Shown here one piece after another: positions 13,677-23,881 of a DNA stretch of 24,000 nt; position 1 is the stretch's first letter; every line of letters starts with the position of its first letter. The position numbers and the translations under genes were made by a program. Location: contig JBEKTU010000018.1 of assembly GCA_049515735.1 (NCBI GenBank), forward strand, positions 1 through 24,000. Direction: 5' to 3'. A model generated the notes under the pieces. It did not search any database and was not told where the DNA came from. It worked only from the letters and a program-made list of their open reading frames with translations. Source of the DNA: Bryobacteraceae bacterium. GTDB taxonomy: Bacteria; Acidobacteriota; Terriglobia; Bryobacterales; Bryobacteraceae.

Positions 13677-15014
13677 TCACTCAAACTGTACGACAGTACT
13701 ATCGTAAAGTCTCCCGTCGGTGGACCAAAGGCTGACCGTGCACTGTTTGAGGCTGGTGAACGGCGAGCTGGAATACAGCACAAAATTCAACGTCGCGTTC
13801 TGGCCGGCATTGAGCGTCTGCGATTGCGCCGCCACGGGGATGATTCCGGTGGTGCACTGGGAGACGGAGGCAATAAAATCTGCCTTGTAATCACCGGCGT
13901 TCCAGATCACCACCGTCATGTTGTTCGTGTGTGCGACCGTCGGTTGCGCTTGGGCGGATTTGATCGCTCCAATGGAATCCGTTATATCTTCATTGAGCGC
14001 CACGGGAAAAGCTGCCGAATTGGTCTGCAATGTGAGCAAGGAGTCGGACATCAGCTTTATTATCACGGCATTGACTGGGCAGGAAGCAGGATTGGCCTGG
14101 CAGGTAGGATCCGACCACGTGCTATACAGCGGTACGCTGGGCGAGACCGTAACCTGGTACGGAGTTCCTGTCCCCTGGGCCAGGTTCACAATCACGCTGT
14201 AGTCGCTGGCGGTTCCGGAAGGCCCGGGCTGCTTCGATATCTGTGCGTGATAGACAGACCCCGGCCCGGACGTCGAAGTGTAAAAATCCAATGTCACAGT
14301 CTGTCCCGCGGTCAGATTGACCATGAAAAGCGTTTGCTCCTGGCAAGTCGGCACCACCGGGTTGCACCCTTGATATGAGGGGATCCAGCCCACCAGCCCG
14401 CTCATATAGCTCGTTGTTACCAGGGTAATATCCAGCCTTGCTGGTTGGCTGGTGGTGGTGCTCTCCTTGCTGTCCAGCGCCACCGAGGTGGTTGGGGCCG
14501 CCGCAGCCGCCGTCACCTGTATCCCGTAGTTTATCCCGCCGTTGGACCTTGCTCCCGAGACCCAGTTCTGCACCACGCTGGTGACATCCACCGTCACATA
14601 CATGCCGGAAGCGGCCACCGGCACGTTGGTCGCAAAGGCTGCAAACGCGGCCGGCTTGGTGTTGTAGGTGACCGTGCTTTCCGTCCACGGCGACTCGATT
14701 TGCGCGAAGTCCAGGCCGCCGGCCACCAGCGCTTTGTCGACGTACACCGTCAGCGTGGCCTTCCCGATGTTCGCCTGCGCGGCGCCCGCCAGGCAGGTCA
14801 AATCGAACTGGATGAGGCCCGCGTTGGCGGACGTCGCTCCCGGGCCCACCGAGATGGTGCCCAGGTTTCCGAAATTCAGCGCCGGGTTGGCCGGGCTGAC
14901 ATAGGTATCCGCCGCCACCGGGCATGTTACCGCCCAAGCGGCTGGCGCCAGCAACAAGGAAGCCGCCCATGCTACCAGGTGAAGCTTCCTCCACCGCTTC
15001 CGTATCGTGAACAT
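13677..15014 (-). CDS. secreted DNRLRE-domain protein with an unrecognised Cys-paired C-terminal region
   Basis: Signal peptide ...LLLAPAAWA-V. DNRLRE-type N-terminal domain: DTYVSPANPALNFGNLGTISVG, TLTVYV, ESPWTESTVTYNTKP, VDVTSVVQNWVSG...NYGIQV, LDSKES...PARLDITL. GGAGG lies 5 nt before the ATG. Confidence 0.75.
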   Translation of the reverse strand: MFTIRKRWRKLHLVAWAASLLLAPAAWAVTCPVAADTYVSPANPALNFGNLGTISVGPGATSANAGLIQFDLTCLAGAAQANIGKATLTVYVDKALVAGGLDFAQIESPWTESTVTYNTKPAAFAAFATNVPVAASGMYVTVDVTSVVQNWVSGARSNGGINYGIQVTAAAAAPTTSVALDSKESTTTSQPARLDITLVTTSYMSGLVGWIPSYQGCNPVVPTCQEQTLFMVNLTAGQTVTLDFYTSTSGPGSVYHAQISKQPGPSGTASDYSVIVNLAQGTGTPYQVTVSPSVPLYSTWSDPTCQANPASCPVNAVIIKLMSDSLLTLQTNSAAFPVALNEDITDSIGAIKSAQAQPTVAHTNNMTVVIWNAGDYKADFIASVSQCTTGIIPVAAQSQTLNAGQNATLNFVLYSSSPFTSLKQCTVSLWSTDGRLYDSTVVQFE

Positions 15015-15062: not shown

Positions 15063-15737
15063 TTATCGGCGCACTACCGGGCTCACCCCGGCATGCTTCC
15101 GGCGCGCTAACAGCGCGACGAGTCCGAGCAACGCCGCCAGCAAGAGCCCCGAGGCAGGTTCCGGAACGGGCGCGGGCGCCGCCGCATCGACTGGCCCGAT
15201 GGTGAAATCGAAATATGACGACCGTGGGTACCCCCCTGGATCGATAAAGGGACCTCCGGTGAAGTTCCCGGTTCCGTCCAGCGCGAAGCCGTCGGCCAAA
15301 GTGGGGCCATTGGGAGTGTTCTCCTGCTCCGTGACCACCACGAAGTAATTGCCCGCCGAGCCCAATGCCGCCTGTACATAAGCGTCCAGGCACAGGCCGC
15401 TCACGGGATCCAGCGCCCGTCCGCCGGTAGCGCAATTGTAGGGAGGGACGCCGCCTACGACGCCGCCGGCGTCGTAGGCCAGCAGGTCGCCGGCGCTATC
15501 GAACAGCGACAACACCGGGGCGAAGCCGCCGCCGGGCACGGTATTGCCCAGCGGGTCGACGCCTCCCGCGTAGGACCACGATTCCAAGTTCACCGTGGCG
15601 GGCGACGCGATGGTGAAGACGAAGTCGGCCTGGTTGTCATCCTGTATGAAATTGCCGGAGAAGCTGAAATACATGGGATCTGCCGGCGCCTGAGCGGCCG
15701 CAGCCAGAATCAGAGCGAGGATTCCAAACGATCGCAT
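15063..15737 (-). CDS. DVUA0089-family PEP-CTERM sorting-domain protein
   Basis: Start at ATG 15737 (MRSFGILALILAAAAQA signal). FSFSGNFIQDDNQADFVFTIASPATVNLESWSYAGG...GGGFAPVLSLFDSAG is the DVUA0089-type pattern. The C-terminus PVPEPASGLLLAALLGLVALLARRK is PEP-CTERM. The 25 codons upstream in the ORF track lack signal-peptide character. Confidence 0.8.
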   Translation of the reverse strand: MRSFGILALILAAAAQAPADPMYFSFSGNFIQDDNQADFVFTIASPATVNLESWSYAGGVDPLGNTVPGGGFAPVLSLFDSAGDLLAYDAGGVVGGVPPYNCATGGRALDPVSGLCLDAYVQAALGSAGNYFVVVTEQENTPNGPTLADGFALDGTGNFTGGPFIDPGGYPRSSYFDFTIGPVDAAAPAPVPEPASGLLLAALLGLVALLARRKHAGVSPVVRR

Positions 15738-15819
15738 AGGGTTGCCGTTTTCGAAATCGGAATCATTGTAGAAGATTGGAAATCCTCTGTCAATGCAAAT
15801 ATCGAACAACAAGACCTGA

Positions 15820-15859
15820 AAGTACTACGTTTTCAAGTACTACGCGTTCAAGTACTTTT
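15820..15859. promoter_or_regulatory. three AGTACT-centred direct repeats at exact 15-bp pitch, upstream of the MerR-type gene
   Basis: AAGTACTACG at 15820-15829 and 15835-15844, and AAGTACTTTT at 15850-15859. Copies 2 and 3 share TTCAAGTACT. The palindromic cores start at 15821, 15836 and 15851. The region is the divergent intergenic spacer between 15737(-) and 15878(+). Confidence 0.5.
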
Positions 15860-15877
15860 CGCTGCTAAAATGTTCGC

Positions 15878-16762
15878 GTGGCTCCAAAGGAGGAGTACTC
15901 GCGGGCGGACGTGCGCCGCCAGTTCGGGATCTCCGCGCGCCAGCTTCGAAGCTGGGAGCGCCGGGGATTGATCGCCGCCGCCAAGTCCTACTCCTTCTCC
16001 GACCTCATTGCTCTCCAGACCCTCATCAAGCTGAGCGAGAAGCACATCCGGCCGCGCCAGATCGGCCGCGCGCTGGAGTCGCTGCGCGAAAAACTCGACT
16101 GGGTCAAGCAGCCGCTGTCGGAGCTTCGCATCGTCTCCGACGGGAAAAAGATCGCGGTCCACCTCGCGGGCCAGAAAATGGAGGCCATCAGCGGGCAGAT
16201 CCTTTTCGATTTCGACGCCGCCGTGCTGGGCGGGGTCAAGAGCTTTCCTGACCGCAAGCGCGCGGTCGATCGGACACGCGAGGCGGAATCCTGGTTCCAG
16301 AAGGGACTCGATCTCGAAGAGACCGGCGCTCCCATCGAACAGGCCATCGAAGCCTACCAGAAGGTGCTCGAATTGAACCCTGGCGCCGCCGGCGCGCTGG
16401 TCAATCTAGGCACCATCCATTACCGCCAGCGCCAGTTCGCCCAGGCCGAAACGTATTACAGGGAAGCCATTGACGCCGACCCCGGCTACCCTCTGGCCCA
16501 ATTCAACCTCGGTAACCTCTACGACGAGCAGGGCCGCGTCGAAGAAGCCTTTGAACACTACCGCCGGACCCTGGAGATCAACCCCAACTACGCCGACGCC
16601 CACTTTAACCTGGCGCTGCTGTGCGAGCGCACCGGCGACCCGCTGAAGGCCGTGCACCACTGGAAGGCGTATCTGAAACTGGACCATTCGGGGCAGTGGG
16701 CCGAGATTGCGCGGCGGCAGTTGGAACGGCTGCGGCAGGCGACCGTGGTTCACTCCCGGTAA
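15878..16762 (+). CDS. MerR-type HTH regulator fused to TPR repeats
   Basis: N-terminus YSRADVRRQFGISARQLRSWERRGLIAAAKSYSFSDLIALQTLIKL is a MerR-family HTH. C-terminal TPR units: AIEAYQKVLELNPGAAGALVNLGTIHY, AETYYREAIDADPGYPLAQFNLGNLY, AFEHYRRTLEINPNYADAHFNLALL. GTG start with no clear SD. Confidence 0.75.
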   Translation: MAPKEEYSRADVRRQFGISARQLRSWERRGLIAAAKSYSFSDLIALQTLIKLSEKHIRPRQIGRALESLREKLDWVKQPLSELRIVSDGKKIAVHLAGQKMEAISGQILFDFDAAVLGGVKSFPDRKRAVDRTREAESWFQKGLDLEETGAPIEQAIEAYQKVLELNPGAAGALVNLGTIHYRQRQFAQAETYYREAIDADPGYPLAQFNLGNLYDEQGRVEEAFEHYRRTLEINPNYADAHFNLALLCERTGDPLKAVHHWKAYLKLDHSGQWAEIARRQLERLRQATVVHSR

Positions 16763-16803
16763 GCGCGCGGTTTCCGCTATCCTGAGATTCTGGAGCCACC
16801 AAT

Positions 16804-17346
16804 TTGAATCGCATTCTTCTGGCGTTTCGCTGCTTTTTCAACATCCTCTTTCACGGTGCGCTTTCCGCGGACGCGCTCGGCGCGCTGAAACTGGTGCGCC
16901 GCGAGCAGGCAGCACCGGGCGGGGTGCCCTCTGGGCCCGGCACCGCGCCGGGCGTCCCGTCGAGGACGCCGGCCGACGGCGCGCTGCAGATTTTGACCAT
17001 CCTCCAGCGGGATTCCCGCTTGGTGGATTTCCTGATGGAGGATATCGCCGCGTACTCCGACGACCAGGTGGGCGCGGCGGTTCGCGAGCTTCACGATCAA
17101 TGCCGCGACTCCCTGACGCGCTATGTCTCATTCCAGCCGGTGATCGACGGCGTCGAAGGCACGCCTGCCAAGGCGCCCTCGGGCGACCCGAAGGCGGTCA
17201 GGTTCGTCGGCAACGTTCCAGCCACGCCACCCTCCGGCGGCACCTTGCGCCACAAAGGATGGCGCGCGGCGAAGGTGGATCTTCCGGACCTGGCGGCCAA
17301 AGAGGATACCAGCATCATCGCGCCCGCGGAAATCGAGATCGAGTAG
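16804..17346 (+). CDS. DUF2760 domain protein
   Basis: TTG start 8 nt after GGAG. Hydrophobic N-terminus (NRILLAFRCFFNILFHGAL), Pro/Gly-rich linker, then ALQILTILQRDSRLVDFLMEDIAAYSDDQVGAAVRELHDQCRDSL, which matches my recollection of the DUF2760 core. The stop is 8 nt before the Hsp70-like start. Confidence 0.65.
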   Translation: MNRILLAFRCFFNILFHGALSADALGALKLVRREQAAPGGVPSGPGTAPGVPSRTPADGALQILTILQRDSRLVDFLMEDIAAYSDDQVGAAVRELHDQCRDSLTRYVSFQPVIDGVEGTPAKAPSGDPKAVRFVGNVPATPPSGGTLRHKGWRAAKVDLPDLAAKEDTSIIAPAEIEIE

Positions 17347-17354
17347 AGCGCCGC

Positions 17355-20009
17355 ATGAAGATCGGCATCGACTTGGGCACCACCAACTCCGCTTTTGCCT
17401 ATATCGACGAAGGCGAGGCGGGGGACCGTGACTTTCCGCCGGTGCGCATCTTCGAGACGCCGCAACTGGTGGCCGCAGGGCGCATTGAGCCGCGCCGTAC
17501 GCTGCCTTCGTTCCTGTTCCTGGAAGACGGACAGCCAGTCGGTGCGTACGCGCGCGACCAGGGCGCGCTCATTCCCACGCGCCTGGTGCACTCGGCGAAA
17601 TCCTGGCTCTCCAACCCAGATGTGGATCGAACCGCCAAAATCCTCCCGTGGGATTCGCAGGAGACGGGACGCGTGCTCTCGCCGGTGGAGGTTTCGGCGC
17701 GCTTCATCGGCAAATTCCGGGAGGAGTGGGACCGCGCGAAAGGCGCGCCGCTGGCCGGGCAGGACATAGTACTCACCGTCCCCGCATCCTTCGACGAAGA
17801 GGCGCGCGAACTCACGGTGATGGCCGCGCGCGAGGCGGGTCTCGAGCGCCTCACGCTGCTCGAAGAGCCGGCCGCGGCGTTCTATTCCTGGATCGCCAAC
17901 AACCTGGCGCAGTCGCGCAAGAAGCTCTTCGACGGACAGACGGTGCTGGTGTGCGACGTGGGCGGAGGCACCAGCGATTTCAGCCTCATACGCGTGGCGC
18001 GCGATGGCGATCTGGTCAACTTCACGCGCACGGCGGTGGGCAAGCACCTGCTGCTGGGCGGCGACAATCTGGACCTGACGCTGGCCTGGCTGGTGGAGAC
18101 CAAACTGGGCGTGCCGCTCTCCATTCGCCAGCGCAGCGGGCTGCGCCGCCAGTGCACCGCCGCTAAAGAAAAGCTGCTCGGCGACGCCAGCCTGAAGGGC
18201 GTAGAAATCACGGTGCTCGGCTCCGGCTCGGCGCTGATCGGCAAATCGCTCAAAACCGAAATCCTGCGCGAGGAAGCACTGGAACTGGCGCTCGAAGGCT
18301 TCCTTCCCTTCACCCAGCGGGGCGAGGCGCCCAAGGAGGAAAAGCGCAGCCTGTTCCGCGAACTCGGCCTGCCGTACGTCTCCGACCCGGCCATCACGCG
18401 CCACTTGAACGCCTTCCTGGAGCCCACCGGCCAGGTTCCCGACGCCATTCTCTTCAACGGCGGTTTCTTCATTCCGGAGATTCTGCAAGCGCGCGCCGCC
18501 GATGTAGTGGGCCAATGGTACGGGCGCCGGCCCGAGATTCTGGAGAACAGCGAGCTCGATCTGGCCGTGGCGCGCGGCGCGGCCTACTACTCTTACGTGC
18601 GCTCGACGGGCAGCGGCGTGCTGGTGCGCGGCGGCTTGCCGCGCACCTACTATATCGCTCTGGGCGAGCCTCGGGAGGGCAAGTTTCCGGCCGTGTGCCT
18701 GGTGCCGCGCGGGGCCGAGGAAGGGGAATCCATCGAGATTGACAACCAGGCGCTGCAGCTTGTCGCCAACCGCCCGGTCTCGTTTCGGCTCTACAGTTCT
18801 CTCACGCGGGCGGACGACAAGCTGGGCGACGTGCTCGAATTCCACACCGGCGATCCGGACTTGCACAGGCACGCCCCGCTCAATGCCGTGATCCGCTTCG
18901 GCAAGCGGGCCGAGGAGCGGCTGATTCCAGTGAAGCTGGGCGCGAGATTGACGGAAATCGGCACGCTCGAAACCTGGTGCGAATCGAAGATCGGCGACAA
19001 CCGCTGGCGGCTCCAGTTCGAGCTGCGCAAACCAGCGGCGGTCGAGCCCGCCGAACGGAAAGCCGCGGCGGTGGTCGGCGAGCAGGCTCTGAAATCGTCG
19101 CTGGAGCTGATCGCGGCGGTATTCTCGGCCACCGCGAAATCGCCCATCGCACCGGAGGAAGTCCCAGCCAGGCTCGAGCAGAGCATGGGGCTGGGCAAGA
19201 ACAGTTGGCCGCTCTCCGCCATCCGCCAACTGGCGGACGCATTTCTGGCGGCAGCCGGTGGCCGCAAGAAAAGTCCGGCTTACGAGATTCGCTGGCTCAA
19301 CCTGTGCGGCTTCTGCCTGCGCCCCGGCTTTGGCTATCCCGGCGACGATTTCCGCCTGGAGCAGGCGCGCCGCATCTACGCCGCCGGCCTCACCCATGGC
19401 AACCAGGTGCAATGCGAAGTGGAGTGGTGGATCTTCTGGGGACGCCTGGCCGGCGGCCTCAACCGCAACCAGCAGACCGATGTCTACCAGCGCCTCTCCG
19501 GCTTTCTGCTGCCCCGCGGCGCCAAGAAGCCGCCGCGCATCAACGCGGCGCTGCTGCGCGAAATGTGGCGCACCGCCTCCAGCCTGGAACTGTTGCCCGT
19601 GGGCGCCAAAACCGAGCTGGGCGAGACGCTCCTCAAGCGCGTCAAAGCCGGCGATTTCAAGGAAAGTGAGCTGTGGTGCCTCTCCCGCCTGGGCGCCCGC
19701 AAGCTTTTCTATGGCCCGAGCAACCTGGTGATCCCGCCCGCCGCAGTGACGCGTTGGGTGGAAGCGCTGCTAAACATCCCCACCGCCGGCGACGCCCTGG
19801 CCGCCATGGCCCGCCGCACCGACGATCCCATGCGCGATCTGCCCATAGCCACGCGCGAGGGAGTCAAACGGAAGCTACAGACCTTGCCCCACGCCGCCCG
19901 CCTGGCCGCGGTTCTGGAAGGTGAAGAAGACGACAGCGCGCTGGGGCGGATCTTCGGAGAGGAACTGCCTTCGGGGCTGGTGCTGGAGAGGCCGGGGGCG
20001 GCTGGCTGA
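17355..20009 (+). CDS. atypical long Hsp70-family ATPase (884 aa): actin-fold NBD plus a non-DnaK-like C-terminal ~460 aa
   Basis: MKIGIDLGTTNSAFAY (phosphate-1), VLVCDVGGGTSDFSLI (phosphate-2), LLGGDNLD, ILFNGGFFIPEI, AVARGAAYY. Downstream comes a beta-rich stretch, then a Trp/Cys-rich helical region (EIRWLNLCGFCLRPGFGYPGDD, EVEWWIFWGRLAGG, ELWCLSRLGARKLFYGP). The 216 codons upstream in ORF 16707.. overlap the DUF2760 gene in another frame and are rejected. Confidence 0.8.
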   Translation: MKIGIDLGTTNSAFAYIDEGEAGDRDFPPVRIFETPQLVAAGRIEPRRTLPSFLFLEDGQPVGAYARDQGALIPTRLVHSAKSWLSNPDVDRTAKILPWDSQETGRVLSPVEVSARFIGKFREEWDRAKGAPLAGQDIVLTVPASFDEEARELTVMAAREAGLERLTLLEEPAAAFYSWIANNLAQSRKKLFDGQTVLVCDVGGGTSDFSLIRVARDGDLVNFTRTAVGKHLLLGGDNLDLTLAWLVETKLGVPLSIRQRSGLRRQCTAAKEKLLGDASLKGVEITVLGSGSALIGKSLKTEILREEALELALEGFLPFTQRGEAPKEEKRSLFRELGLPYVSDPAITRHLNAFLEPTGQVPDAILFNGGFFIPEILQARAADVVGQWYGRRPEILENSELDLAVARGAAYYSYVRSTGSGVLVRGGLPRTYYIALGEPREGKFPAVCLVPRGAEEGESIEIDNQALQLVANRPVSFRLYSSLTRADDKLGDVLEFHTGDPDLHRHAPLNAVIRFGKRAEERLIPVKLGARLTEIGTLETWCESKIGDNRWRLQFELRKPAAVEPAERKAAAVVGEQALKSSLELIAAVFSATAKSPIAPEEVPARLEQSMGLGKNSWPLSAIRQLADAFLAAAGGRKKSPAYEIRWLNLCGFCLRPGFGYPGDDFRLEQARRIYAAGLTHGNQVQCEVEWWIFWGRLAGGLNRNQQTDVYQRLSGFLLPRGAKKPPRINAALLREMWRTASSLELLPVGAKTELGETLLKRVKAGDFKESELWCLSRLGARKLFYGPSNLVIPPAAVTRWVEALLNIPTAGDALAAMARRTDDPMRDLPIATREGVKRKLQTLPHAARLAAVLEGEEDDSALGRIFGEELPSGLVLERPGAAG

Positions 20010-20012
20010 CGC

Positions 20013-20034
20013 GCTGGTGCGGGGCCGCGCCAGC
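20013..20034. terminator. candidate bidirectional hairpin between convergent genes
   Basis: gctggtgc(gg) / (cc)gcgccagc form an 8-10 bp GC-rich stem with one G-U position, lying in the 58-nt gap between stops at 20009(+) and 20068(-). No U-tract on either strand. Confidence 0.3.
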
Positions 20035-20067
20035 TATGCGAACAGCGCTAGGTTCCGGCGACCGCTG

Positions 20068-20928
20068 TCAGGCCTGTTCGTCGAGTTGTTTAAGGGATTC
20101 TCCATCCTTAGTCTTCCACACGATAAGTCCGTTTGCGCTCCCGCCGTGTACAACGACCGCAGCCGCAGATGGGCTAGAAAACTCGGCATCCTTGGTGAAG
20201 ACCAAGAACCCACCTTTCTCAATGAGCGTGCCGTCGGCTATGAGCTGTTTGCGCTGGGCTACCACGTAAGGATAGTTTTCGGCGGATGGGCGCTGCTCCA
20301 AGACCGCGGTGGAACCGTGGAACACGACGAAGCCGTTCGCGGTGCGCTGGCCTCGCGCTTCAGCTCCCTTGACGCGGCAGAAGAGCACTCCGCCTGGCTG
20401 AGCTGTCGCGGCGGGTTGAGCGATCGGCGTGAGGATGTCGGAGCCCAGGACGGGAAGGAGCTGCCGAATGCGGGCCAAAAACACCTCCATGTCCTCCCGG
20501 TCCGATTCGGGAAGCTTCGAGCCGCCAGCCTGATTCTGTTCGAGCGCGAATCTGTTGATCTGAGCTGCTTCGGCGAGGAGGCGGCTTTCGAGATACCTCA
20601 CATGAGCCTTAGTCAGGTTCTCGTCCTTGCTGACAAAGACGATGGCCGAAACCCAAAACTCCTTCGTCTTGTGCTGCTTCAGCCGCTCGCGAATGATTTC
20701 CGCTTCGCCGATGTAGGCGCGGGGTGCGTTGGTAACTGGGTCGCTGCCAATAATGAGGATATAGACTCCGGCCTTCTCGAGTTCCTCGCGAGCTAGCAGT
20801 TCCTCTAGTTCGGTGCGGGGTGCGGCAACGGCCTTGCCGGTCCAGTTAGAGATCTCGGCAGTGCGTAGACTCTTCGCGTCTCCGCGTGGAAGGAAGAGTT
20901 TGATAGTCGCCGACGTCATGTGCTCCAT
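20068..20928 (-). CDS. GIY-YIG nuclease-like protein with C-terminal DUF4357-type domain
   Basis: N-terminus IKLFLPRGDAKSLRTAEISNWTGKAVAAPRTEL. GIY-YIG-like core GVYILIIG...RAYIGEAEIIRERLKQH...HVRYLESRL. C-terminus FCRVKGAEARGQRTANGFVVFHGS...FTKDAEFSSPSAAAVVVHGGSANGLIVWK is the DUF4357 pattern as I recall it. Candidate starts are GTG 20931, ATG 20928 and ATG 20919. Spot GC counts of 34/60 and 31/60 are below the neighbours. Confidence 0.75.
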   Translation of the reverse strand: MEHMTSATIKLFLPRGDAKSLRTAEISNWTGKAVAAPRTELEELLAREELEKAGVYILIIGSDPVTNAPRAYIGEAEIIRERLKQHKTKEFWVSAIVFVSKDENLTKAHVRYLESRLLAEAAQINRFALEQNQAGGSKLPESDREDMEVFLARIRQLLPVLGSDILTPIAQPAATAQPGGVLFCRVKGAEARGQRTANGFVVFHGSTAVLEQRPSAENYPYVVAQRKQLIADGTLIEKGGFLVFTKDAEFSSPSAAAVVVHGGSANGLIVWKTKDGESLKQLDEQA

Positions 20929-20933
20929 CACGT

Positions 20934-22604: not shown

Positions 22605-23306
22605 GTGAGACGCATTTCCCGCTACCTTCCCCTGCTGTTCGTGCTGTTCTGTGGCATTCAGTTTGCCAGCGCCCAGAGCGCCTTCGACTTGAACTTGGGA
22701 TTCGGCGCTATCCAGGATAAAGCCAGCTCCACCCAGGTCGATCAAGAGTTGAATACTTGCACGACAGGCGATCTTTATCCGCCTTGCGTGTCGACCCCCG
22801 CGCTCAGCGGGTTCATGATGGGCTTTGGCGGCGACCTGATGCTGTGGAAGAAACTCGGTGGCCAGTTGGGTGTTGGCGCCGAGGTGGGTTTCCAGCCCGC
22901 CAAAGAGAATTACATAAACCTGAACGCGTCGGCTGCGGCAAGCGGGCTGAGCAGCGAAAGCATACAGTCCCGCATGACGCTATTCGATTTCAATGGGATT
23001 TACGAGCCGGTCAACAACAAGAAGGTCACCCTCAAGCTGGAGGGCGGCATCGGCGTCGCGAATCTCAAGTTCTATGAGAGCGGCTCCTCCAGTTCCGTGC
23101 TGGGCAGCCAGAGCCAATCGGAGTATTTCGGAAGTGCCAACCACTTTCAGGTGCACGGCGGCGTGGGCGTGCAGATCTATGTCAGCGGCAACTTCTTCAT
23201 TCGCCCGGAGTTCGATGTCCACTACGTTCGCAACCTGACGCAGTTTGGAAGCAACATAGTGACGGCCGAGATGGTGTGGGTGGGATATAGCTGGGGCGAT
23301 CGCTAG
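22605..23306 (+). CDS. small outer-membrane beta-barrel protein
   Basis: GTG 22605 lies 8 nt after AGGAGA and gives the signal peptide RRISRYLPLLFVLFCGIQFASA-Q. Alternating amphipathic beta-strands: GVGAEVGFQP, LKLEGGIGVANLKFY, QVHGGVGVQIYV, FIRPEFDVHYV, EMVWVGYSW. Confidence 0.7.
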   Translation: MRRISRYLPLLFVLFCGIQFASAQSAFDLNLGFGAIQDKASSTQVDQELNTCTTGDLYPPCVSTPALSGFMMGFGGDLMLWKKLGGQLGVGAEVGFQPAKENYINLNASAAASGLSSESIQSRMTLFDFNGIYEPVNNKKVTLKLEGGIGVANLKFYESGSSSSVLGSQSQSEYFGSANHFQVHGGVGVQIYVSGNFFIRPEFDVHYVRNLTQFGSNIVTAEMVWVGYSWGDR

Positions 23307-23881
23307 AGCGCTGGCTGTGCGAGTTTCGGAACGGACTCAAACAGGCGCCGGCAATGCCTTGACGCCTGTCTGACCCGCGCCGGACTGATCAGTTTGAGCA
23401 GGGAAGGCGCGTGTTTTGTCTTGTGGTACCGGCCTTTGCTCGTGTCCTTCGTCGCGGTCTTCAGAGCTTCGAAAACATCCTCCTTGAGGATCTCTTCAAC
23501 GTTCGGATTCCCCCGGACAACATCCTCGCGAAACTCATTGCGGTAATATTTCTTCAGTGCTTCGGCATCGGCCAGAAACCAGGCCTCCATGCACTGTACC
23601 ATCCAGAAGACCGTGTCTTCCGACCGAACGTCAATTCCCCGTGGCTGGCAGATGGTCTCAAACAGCTTGCCGTCATCGGGCCCCTCGCTGTCGATCAGCA
23701 GAATGTTGAGCGAATCGGGGTGGGTGTCGAGCGCCAACCGAAAAACTCCGCACGGGTCCGCCTTGCCCGCTATGAGCTTCGGCGCCCGCCCGAGTGTTGA
23801 GGTGAGTTCCTTGAGGAACTCCGAGAACCCCTCTCGCAAGGCTGGATCTCCTTCGAAATGAATCCTGACTTCGCTCACCAT
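23303..23881 (-). CDS. DUF4276-family protein (possible TOPRIM-like fold)
   Basis: 192 aa with VRIHFEGD near the N-terminus, NILLIDSEGPDD, and MVQCMEAWFLADAEAL (E-x-W-(F/L)-L-AD motif as I recall for DUF4276). The ATG overlaps the upstream gene's stop. A spot GC count of line 23461-23520 gives 30/60. Confidence 0.65.
   Translation of the reverse strand: MVSEVRIHFEGDPALREGFSEFLKELTSTLGRAPKLIAGKADPCGVFRLALDTHPDSLNILLIDSEGPDDGKLFETICQPRGIDVRSEDTVFWMVQCMEAWFLADAEALKKYYRNEFREDVVRGNPNVEEILKEDVFEALKTATKDTSKGRYHKTKHAPSLLKLISPARVRQASRHCRRLFESVPKLAQPAL

Follow-up and report, generated by a model that had tools for sequence, protein, structure and literature searches.

A reduced two-gene form of a widespread DUF2760-Hsp70 operon in a Bryobacteraceae genome

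Introduction

Hsp70 chaperones are generally considered to need J-proteins and exchange factors in order to function. Specialised arrangements of Hsp70s include the Hsp70-Hsp110 pairs, in which a long paralogue acts on a short one, and HscC of Escherichia coli, a divergent non-heat-shock Hsp70 that is encoded beside the membrane-anchored J-proteins DjlB and DjlC. Here we describe a locus in which a divergent long Hsp70 (Hsp70L) is encoded directly downstream of a small protein of the family DUF2760, preceded by a gene for a MerR-type protein with tetratricopeptide repeats (TPRs), denoted MerR-TPR. The locus is located in a 24,000-nucleotide stretch of DNA, referred to as the window, from a Bryobacteraceae bacterium of the phylum Acidobacteriota (GenBank assembly GCA_049515735.1, contig JBEKTU010000018.1, positions 1 to 24,000).

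Three further described proteins can be compared with parts of this locus. HspR, a MerR-like repressor for which DnaK acts as the corepressor, is encoded in dnaK operons (PMC4063869). CnuD of the CoCoNuT restriction systems combines an Hsp70-like nucleotide-binding domain (NBD) and substrate-binding domain (SBD) with HEAT-like repeats, and is described as having degenerate ATPase motifs and McrBC-type partners (PMC11090510). MXAN_5323 is a 925-aa Hsp70 of Myxococcus xanthus whose deletion lowered sporulation and H2O2 survival with mild phenotypes, and which failed to rescue a dnaK mutant of E. coli (PMC8265645).

DUF2760 and DUF3731, the family that covers the C-terminal region of Hsp70L, are already in Pfam and the long proteins are publicly named 'Hsp70 family protein', so membership in these families is not new. 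Within the literature library that could be searched, we found no paper naming DUF2760, DUF3731, PF10816 or PF12531. The only possible experimental foothold is MXAN_5323, a possible homologue of Hsp70L.

Results

Gene order of the locus

The locus consists of three genes on the forward strand. The merR-TPR gene (15878-16762) starts with GTG and encodes 294 aa, the DUF2760 gene (16804-17346) starts with TTG and encodes 180 aa, and the Hsp70L gene (17355-20009) starts with ATG and encodes 884 aa. The coordinates of the open reading frames (ORFs) leave gaps of 41 nt between merR-TPR and DUF2760 and 8 nt between DUF2760 and Hsp70L, in agreement with the first-pass annotation of this DNA. No convincing terminator was found between the three genes in the window sequence, and Rfam and tRNA scans of the window returned no match. 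DUF2760 and Hsp70L are probably co-transcribed and, judging from the 8-nt gap, are probably also translationally coupled. Our confidence in the genomic and structural description of the module that follows is high.

Reduction from a three-gene operon

We surveyed the surroundings of DUF2760 in two censuses. We scanned GTDB, with each species represented by one genome and a DUF2760 alignment as the query, and confirmed at least 597 loci, in species-level genomes that fitted a single peptide pattern. The best 80 of these, nearly all from Acidobacteriota as judged from record titles, were classified by tblastn and form the acidobacterial census. Of these, 71 loci were classifiable and 9 were too short. 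The second census searched metagenome contigs with a betaproteobacterial DUF2760 seed and provided 37 loci with enough flanking sequence.

Most classifiable acidobacterial loci (50 out of 71) have the order DUF2760, a second Hsp70 paralogue (Hsp70S), and Hsp70L with DUF3731. DUF2760 is followed directly by Hsp70L, as in the window, in 19 loci, and the remaining 2 have DUF2760 and Hsp70S only. All 37 metagenome loci have the three-gene form. A same-strand Hsp70 paralogue was found directly after DUF2760 in every classifiable locus, both acidobacterial (71/71) and metagenomic (37/37), in agreement with the statement in the first-pass annotation that DUF2760 recurrently neighbours long Hsp70 genes. 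The same three-gene order is present on annotated alpha- and betaproteobacterial replicons, among them those of Bradyrhizobium and Comamonadaceae, with overlapping stop and start codons in Comamonadaceae.

Hsp70S is a paralogue of about 570-625 aa that is located between DUF2760 and Hsp70L and is missing in the window. Its end coincides with the end of the beta domain of Hsp70L, at about residue 563, and Hsp70S is therefore a lidless Hsp70. A second Hsp70 paralogue is thus the usual state in the census and was lost in the window lineage, and what remains in the window is the reduced version of a three-gene operon that is widespread. This changes an earlier description of the module as self-contained and co-chaperone-less. 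That no co-chaperone gene is nearby stands, with no DnaJ or GrpE family found among the scanned ORFs of the window or the called genes within 10 kb on parent contigs, but the canonical operon encodes a lidless second Hsp70 and DUF2760 is itself a candidate cofactor.

We constructed a neighbour-joining tree of Hsp70L, with lineage labels taken from the record titles. The tree is split into a Bryobacterales-type group and the other acidobacterial lineages. The two-gene form was found in at least six clades within the Bryobacterales-type group and in none outside it. The nearest relatives of the window module (L001, L002, and L004, with 88-92% NBD identity) retain Hsp70S. The spacers between DUF2760 and Hsp70L in two-gene loci, including the 8-nt gap of the window, contain no remnants of Hsp70S. 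The DUF2760 core evolves at a similar rate in two-gene and three-gene loci, with a distance ratio of 1.20 versus 1.13 and an entropy of 0.94 versus 0.96 +/- 0.025. The scattered positions in the tree, the absence of remnants and the similar rate indicate that Hsp70S was lost repeatedly while DUF2760 and Hsp70L remained constrained. Relaxed selection on DUF2760 in two-gene loci was considered separately and rejected, as the relative rate is unchanged.

The loss of Hsp70S could mean that the two remaining genes are decaying, non-functional passengers, given that the canonical operon has three genes and that the nearest relatives of the window retain all of them. However, both ORFs are intact and retain all invariant residues, and the identical 884-aa Hsp70L was found on at least 23 contigs from different samples. 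The recurrence of the two-gene form in at least six clades without relaxation of DUF2760, and the lack of Hsp70S leftovers in the two-gene spacers, also count against decay, which we consider exceedingly unlikely. In two spacers (L003, 10541-10697; L006, 10544-10694) we observed GC-rich inverted repeats with repeated TTGGCA-type motifs. These may be repeat elements left where Hsp70S was deleted.

Clustering of the neighbouring genes in the acidobacterial set identified only two other recurrent genes, merR-TPR and a thiL-like gene. The metagenome set has no recurrent neighbours beyond a lineage-specific small ORF, and across these two sets no neighbour other than the Hsp70 paralogues recurs between lineages. 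The thiL-like gene, which encodes an AIRS domain, is located directly after Hsp70L in 18 loci (L010, L011, L020, L029, L031, L033, L043, and L044 among them), where it overlaps or abuts the Hsp70L stop codon. The split in the tree together with this housekeeping neighbour suggests that the module is vertically inherited. On the parent contig of the window (L084), an AIRS-domain gene at 19427-20365 on the reverse strand, about 7 kb from Hsp70L and opposite to it in strand, is a possible counterpart of the thiL-like gene. Genes of the PDC-S14 type (described below), bfr, fpg, an OMP gene and HEC-01 genes are located between the two. This suggests rearrangement and insertion downstream of Hsp70L in the window lineage.

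Hsp70L has an intact ATPase domain and DUF3731 in place of the lid

The actin-fold NBD of Hsp70L comprises residues 1-418 (17355..18608, forward strand), as defined by Pfam HSP70 and DnaK NBD matches and by an AlphaFold model. The match to HSP70 (PF00012) covers residues 3-276 only (E-value 4e-22; 78.6 bits, with the cut-off at 20.6) and spans positions 2-269 of the 599 in the profile, and the closest solved relatives of the NBD are DnaK NBDs. The translation contains each of the ATP-binding motifs listed in the first-pass annotation (DLGTTNS, DVGGGTSD, GGDNLD, and NGG), as well as AVARGAAYY. The equivalents of DnaK D8, K70, P143, R151, E171, D194, T199, and D201 are retained in both Hsp70L and Hsp70S, and on these residues the Hsp70L ATPase looks active. 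In DnaK, we take R167 to be the J-domain contact and P143, R151, and E171 to form the allosteric switch. At the position equivalent to R167 the acidobacterial proteins have Thr and two proteobacterial long paralogues have Arg, and the change to Thr suggests that the acidobacterial proteins may be independent of J-proteins.

The AlphaFold model of Hsp70L, built on 80 sequences, has a mean predicted local distance difference test score (pLDDT) of 77. It shows the NBD followed by an 11-strand beta domain (residues 425-555; 18627..19019, forward strand), a disordered segment (557-575) and 15 helices (576-866; 19080..19952, forward strand), with pLDDT mostly 60-83 in the beta domain and mostly 85-93 in the C-terminal helices. 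The C-terminal domain is thus all-helical, as had been read from the translation for a region of roughly 300 aa. It contains DUF3731 (PF12531, 'DNA-K related protein'), matched at residues 640-877 over the full profile (E-value 6e-70, 236.4 bits against a cut-off of 25, positions 1-248 of 248), in the place of the lid. Within the helical domain a block reading RWLN..LRPG.G...D..R is invariant, and FGE.LP.GL, close to the C-terminus, is a conserved motif. A profile search of PDB sequences with this domain found no solved relative; over the profile searches with the helical and the beta domain, the best match, with an E-value of 0.43, was to a PRONE domain. Hsp70L ends in ...FGEELPSGLVLERPGAAG; as had been noted, there is no EEVD-type tail, and no HSP70 Pfam match was found after residue 575.

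All of the top 50 Foldseek matches of the Hsp70L model are multi-domain Hsp70-family chains containing SBD-beta. ATP-state or AMPylated DnaK and BiP structures in which the lid is missing or disordered superpose over about 590 columns at 6-7 A, with a template modelling score on the target, TM(target), of 0.65-0.67. Among them are the ATP-state lid-less DnaK 7krv_A (TM(target) 0.65, root mean square deviation 6.8 A, 591 columns) and BiP 6zmd_A (TM(target) 0.67, 6.0 A), while structures with an undocked SBD superpose at about 20 A. Identity to the DnaK-type structures is about 18-21%. We tentatively read the beta domain as an SBD-beta-like sandwich, modelled as docked on the NBD in the position of the ATP state. 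It had been stated that Hsp70L does not continue as a DnaK SBD and lid after AVARGAAYY. This holds for the lid, which is replaced by DUF3731, and at the level of sequence, but by its predicted fold the beta domain may be SBD-beta-like.

A protein with a clearly Hsp70-type NBD, intact catalytic and allosteric residues, and HscA and DnaK as its best NCBIfam matches could be an ordinary specialised paralogue of the HscA or HscC kind that uses housekeeping J-proteins and GrpE, with DUF2760 as a client or an unrelated neighbour. The mild deletion phenotypes of MXAN_5323, if it is a homologue, and its failure to complement E. coli dnaK (PMC8265645) would fit this explanation. However, the scores are far under the equivalog cut-offs, which Hsp70L does not reach for HscA (TIGR01991, 88.9 bits against 708.55) or DnaK (TIGR02350, 79.6 bits against 822.55), DUF3731 takes the place of the lid, and the J-domain contact is Thr in the acidobacterial proteins. 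DUF2760 is also unlikely to be an unrelated neighbour, because its adjacency to an Hsp70 paralogue is invariant across phyla and the reading frames often overlap or nearly do so. On this evidence, an ordinary proteostasis paralogue is unlikely.

DUF2760 has a conserved core and a variable N-terminal segment

The 180-aa protein was found to match DUF2760 (PF10816) with an E-value of 6.2e-41 (139.6 bits, with the cut-off at 25) over positions 3-124 of the 124 in the profile, which confirms its assignment to this family. At an E-value of 1e-3 or better, the family comprises 1,864 clusters at 50% identity. Residues Q68, R72, D75, F76, G90, G146, H150, G152, and E176 are invariant across the family, and a PAE.E motif at the terminus is near-invariant.

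The AlphaFold model of DUF2760 was built on 70 diverse sequences and has a pLDDT of 90.5. It consists of an N-terminal helix (residues 2-17), a Pro/Gly linker (28-55) of low confidence, and a confident, compact alpha/beta core of three helices and four short strands. The anatomy previously read from the sequence (N-terminal helix, linker, and conserved core) is reproduced by the model, with the core being alpha/beta. No solved relative of the fold was found by Foldseek (best E-value 0.6) or by a sequence search of solved structures.

The first-pass annotation had also proposed that the module may be membrane-tethered through DUF2760. In the family this is plausible. A 19-residue segment reaches a Kyte-Doolittle average of at least 1.6 in 82 out of 150 representatives and at least 2.0 in 60 out of 150, and in these 60 a strongly hydrophobic, transmembrane-like segment is located ahead of the linker. 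In the window, however, the N-terminal segment has a 19-residue score of 1.63 and a hydrophobic moment of 0.47, which makes it borderline hydrophobic and amphipathic.

The C-terminus of the window DUF2760 reads ...APAEIEIE and is ordered in the model, with pLDDT 90-96. All complete Bryobacterales-type tails read end in ...E[IV]E-COOH except that of L017 (...EVA). The tails of the other acidobacterial lineages read ...EVE[VLI] plus one non-acidic residue.

MerR-TPR and the upstream DNA

The 294-aa protein has a MerR_1 helix-turn-helix (HTH) at residues 7-68 (26.8-27.8 bits against a Pfam cut-off of 21.6) and about four near-consensus TPRs over residues 134-270 (TPR_1, E-value 1.8e-29), and its TPR region resembles consensus TPR proteins. 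Full-length orthologues with 46-78% identity are located upstream of DUF2760 in 30 of the 80 acidobacterial loci, all of which carry a Bryobacterales-type Hsp70L. The HTH score and this synteny support the earlier view that a MerR-type regulator gene belongs to the module.

In most of the inspected loci (in the range L001-L079), an extended -10 element resembling TGnTAnAAT is located 6-7 nt before the MerR-TPR start. In the window this element is TGCTAAAAT (15863..15871, forward strand), the last base of which is 7 nt ahead of the GTG at 15878. Its conserved position beside the start implies a leaderless transcript and supports the 294-aa start, and the merR-TPR mRNA accordingly looks leaderless from its upstream sequence. 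No -35 element or promoter spacer could be defined upstream of the extended -10.

Ahead of merR-TPR, AAGTACT is repeated three times in direct orientation with 15-nt spacing (15820..15856, forward strand; copies at 15820, 15835, and 15850). The third copy is just upstream of the extended -10, and the repeats form a candidate operator. AAGTACT occurs 6 times in the window, compared with 0.34 expected (about 18-fold), and 4 of these are in this region. L002 and L004 have one TTCAAGTACTTTTC copy ahead of their merR-TPR orthologue, and other repeats are present upstream in the more distant MerR-TPR loci. The AAGTACT repeats are located between merR-TPR and a divergent PEP-CTERM gene and could serve either gene. 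We also observed a GAGTACTC palindrome within the first codons of merR-TPR (15893-15900). The divergent gene (15063-15812, reverse strand) encodes a PEP-CTERM-anchored protein, a putative exosortase substrate, and has a near-consensus sigma-70-like promoter, TTGACA-17-TACAAT, at 15793-15765.

MerR-TPR is, judging from its domains and position, the probable regulator of the operon, and by analogy with HspR it may be autoregulatory. It could instead be a modulator of the CbpM or Hop kind, which would bind Hsp70 or the ...EIEIE tail of DUF2760 through its TPRs and would not act as a transcription factor. TPR domains are classical binders of the acidic C-termini of Hsp70 and Hsp90, and it is the Bryobacterales-type DUF2760 proteins whose tails end in an acidic residue while those of other lineages end non-acidic. 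CbpM has a MerR-like fold and regulates a co-chaperone rather than DNA (PMC4063869). On the other hand, the DUF2760 tail is ordered in the model and is not a free peptide, and the PAEVE motif is conserved in lineages without MerR-TPR; for these reasons, binding of the tail by the TPRs has a low probability. The correlation between acidic tails and MerR-TPR amounts to one clade-level event. In addition, the HTH scores above the MerR_1 cut-off, and the candidate operator and promoter are located directly upstream of the gene. A modulator in place of a transcription factor therefore appears rather improbable.

Neighbouring genes and the question of defence

The first-pass annotation had noted a lower-GC nuclease gene in tail-to-tail orientation with the module and had suggested a role in conflict or defence. 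This neighbour (20068-20931, reverse strand, 287 aa) is convergent and its GC content is lower (0.60 versus 0.66-0.68). It has a full-length match to PDC-S14 of PADLOC (E-value 4e-103) and a match to Pfam DUF4357, but the nuclease assignment would depend on a GIY-YIG match that is sub-threshold (E-value 0.07); a RAMA match is weak. No PDC-S14 gene adjoins the module in the 80 related loci, so the gene looks like a lineage-specific insertion. A DUF4276 gene (23303-23881, reverse strand), 3.3 kb from the module, matches HEC-01B of PADLOC (E-value 3e-45). The locus continues past the end of the window (L084, 16521-17669), and on the parent contig a gene for an AAA_21/AAA_15 ATPase comes next; the two are a candidate two-gene defence pair, which the window edge cuts.

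We searched for DUF2760 in mobile elements and found it in none of 50,697 phage records or 2.9 million viral contigs, and in 11 out of 72,556 plasmid records, most of which are megaplasmids or chromids. Among the models of PADLOC-DB 2.0, DUF2760 has no match, Hsp70L has only a partial match to PDC-M61B (E-value 5e-5), and MerR-TPR has only weak generic matches to TPR, mad1, and PrimPol models (E-values 2.4e-6 to 6e-3).

These results bear on whether the module is an anti-phage or conflict system, in which the Hsp70-like ATPase would act with DUF2760 as a membrane effector. Beyond the PDC-S14/DUF4357 and HEC-01B/DUF4276 genes in the window, a pair of DUF2760 and Hsp70S is located among genes annotated as anti-phage on plasmid pTs485 of Candidatus Thiodictyon syntrophicum, one copy is on a conjugative Bradyrhizobium plasmid, and CnuD of the CoCoNuT systems has a similar gross architecture (PMC11090510). 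The Thiodictyon island and the architecture of CnuD are the reasons for which we retain defence as a low-probability alternative. However, the PDC-S14 adjacency is a single case (0 out of 80 related loci), and neither census contains a recurrent defence gene beside the module. The PADLOC matches of the three proteins are weak, partial or generic, DUF2760 is missing from the phage and viral collections and rare among plasmids, and both the tree split and the thiL-like neighbour point to vertical inheritance. The ATPase motifs of Hsp70L are intact where those of CnuD are described as degenerate, and no McrBC-type partner was found among the scanned ORFs or called genes. The suggested defence role is not supported, and we regard a defence function as very unlikely.

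The plasmid locus mentioned above (NZ_CP020372.1, 339309-357689) has DUF2760 and Hsp70S without Hsp70L. Its surroundings contain DUF1156, DUF3780, and PLD genes annotated as anti-phage, VapC, Uma2, and a TIR-domain gene, and it is the only defence-island context seen for DUF2760.

A further gene in the window (13677-15014, reverse strand) encodes a protein of 445 aa that appears to be secreted and begins with a CBM96 domain. Its last approximately 100 residues match positions 365-466 of the HAP2-GCS1 profile in Pfam (41 bits, with the cut-off at 27.4) and the C-terminal part of the solved HAP2 structure 6dbs_A (chain residues 462-552, E-value 3.5e-4). HAP2-GCS1 is a eukaryotic gamete-fusogen family, and a HAP2-like domain is unexpected in an acidobacterium.

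Discussion

The genes and their conserved order are consistent with a dedicated, non-canonical two-component Hsp70 machine, in which DUF2760 would be an obligate and probably membrane-proximal partner of Hsp70L. We put forward this reading tentatively, with chances that are even at best. DUF2760 would be located on or close to the membrane's inner face, here through its N-terminal amphipathic helix and in many relatives through transmembrane-like segments. Its core, held on the flexible Pro/Gly linker, would bind and control the Hsp70 as a J-protein or exchange factor does for DnaK. Hsp70L would hydrolyse ATP, and the signal would pass through the P143/R151/E171 switch to the SBD-beta-like clamp. 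The DUF3731 helical domain, in place of the lid, may serve as a platform that binds a specific partner or client and so provides target specificity. Where Hsp70S is present, the two paralogues may pair in the manner of Hsp70 and Hsp110, while in the window Hsp70L would work without Hsp70S. MerR-TPR would be the autoregulatory, HspR-like transcription factor of the operon. The physiological role would most likely be a stress- or envelope-linked remodelling rather than bulk folding or phage defence. A more specific version, in which the machine is free of J-proteins and GrpE, DUF2760 is its tethered cofactor, Hsp70L acts like an Hsp110 on Hsp70S, and MerR-TPR provides feedback, is possible but doubtful.

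Several observations weigh against this proposal. The change from R167 to Thr is not universal, as proteobacterial long paralogues retain Arg, and housekeeping DnaJ and GrpE elsewhere in the genome are still possible cofactors. The assignment of the beta domain as SBD-beta comes from one AlphaFold2 model and a Foldseek summary, in which a TM(target) of 0.65 may reflect mostly the NBD. An hhalign comparison of the beta domain with the E. coli DnaK SBD gave a probability of 0.1, and a profile search of PDB sequences with the beta domain returned nothing useful. The helix of the window DUF2760 is on the borderline of hydrophobicity, which leaves the membrane association of this protein uncertain. 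As MerR-TPR is confined to Bryobacterales, its link to the module could be inherited synteny, and the region after its HTH does not read obviously as a classical MerR coiled coil.

A widespread operon in which divergent Hsp70s, with their catalytic residues intact, are combined with a small partner of a unique kind would provide a test, in bacteria, of the reach of the rule that Hsp70s require J-proteins and exchange factors. The two-gene form of Bryobacterales shows which parts are dispensable and offers a minimal system for reconstitution, and basic biochemistry of DUF2760 and DUF3731 would be new. If the module is only a minor stress chaperone, its value lies mainly in annotation. The system is well-defined, widespread and unstudied, and the defence angle is unsupported.

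Comparison with known systems

Myxococcus StkA, which had been given as an example of a non-canonical Hsp70, was considered as a relative and rejected. It is a DnaK homologue of 540 aa whose gene has SCP2-like and PhaE-like genes beside it, and the likeness is not one of homology. MXAN_5323 has the right length and an NBD-only annotation (cd10170), and is a possible homologue of Hsp70L. Compared by architecture, CnuD has the same gross order of NBD, SBD and helical-repeat domain as that predicted for Hsp70L. The two differ in that the motifs of Hsp70L are intact and its partner is DUF2760, with no McrB/McrC-like Pfam families among the scanned ORFs and called genes.

Like HspR, MerR-TPR has a MerR-type HTH and shares its operon with an Hsp70. 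Unlike HspR, it is encoded by the first gene of the operon, carries a TPR domain, is apparently translated from a leaderless transcript and is preceded by AAGTACT repeats rather than a HAIR element. The canonical operon, in pairing a shorter Hsp70 paralogue with a much longer one, resembles the Hsp70-Hsp110 pair Ssa/Sse1, and Sse1 chains are among the Foldseek matches of Hsp70L, with the longest alignments (811-817 columns). However, Hsp70S has no lid, the short partner is missing in the window, and the comparison does not extend to homology between DUF3731 and the Hsp110 lid.

With DnaK-DnaJ-GrpE the module shares an actin-fold NBD with catalytic and allosteric residues, a predicted docked SBD-beta-like domain, and an operon that includes a small partner gene. 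It differs in that Hsp70L has about 18-21% identity to DnaK-type structures, DUF3731 in place of the lid and Thr at the R167 equivalent. No J-protein or GrpE gene is nearby, and the partner, DUF2760, has a predicted fold that is unmatched in the PDB. In HscC-DjlB/DjlC, the membrane-anchored partners are J-proteins, whereas DUF2760 has neither a J-domain nor an HPD motif and its anchor would be N-terminal. The arrangement is nevertheless alike, as a divergent Hsp70 is encoded beside a dedicated membrane-tethered cofactor, which is the role proposed here for DUF2760.

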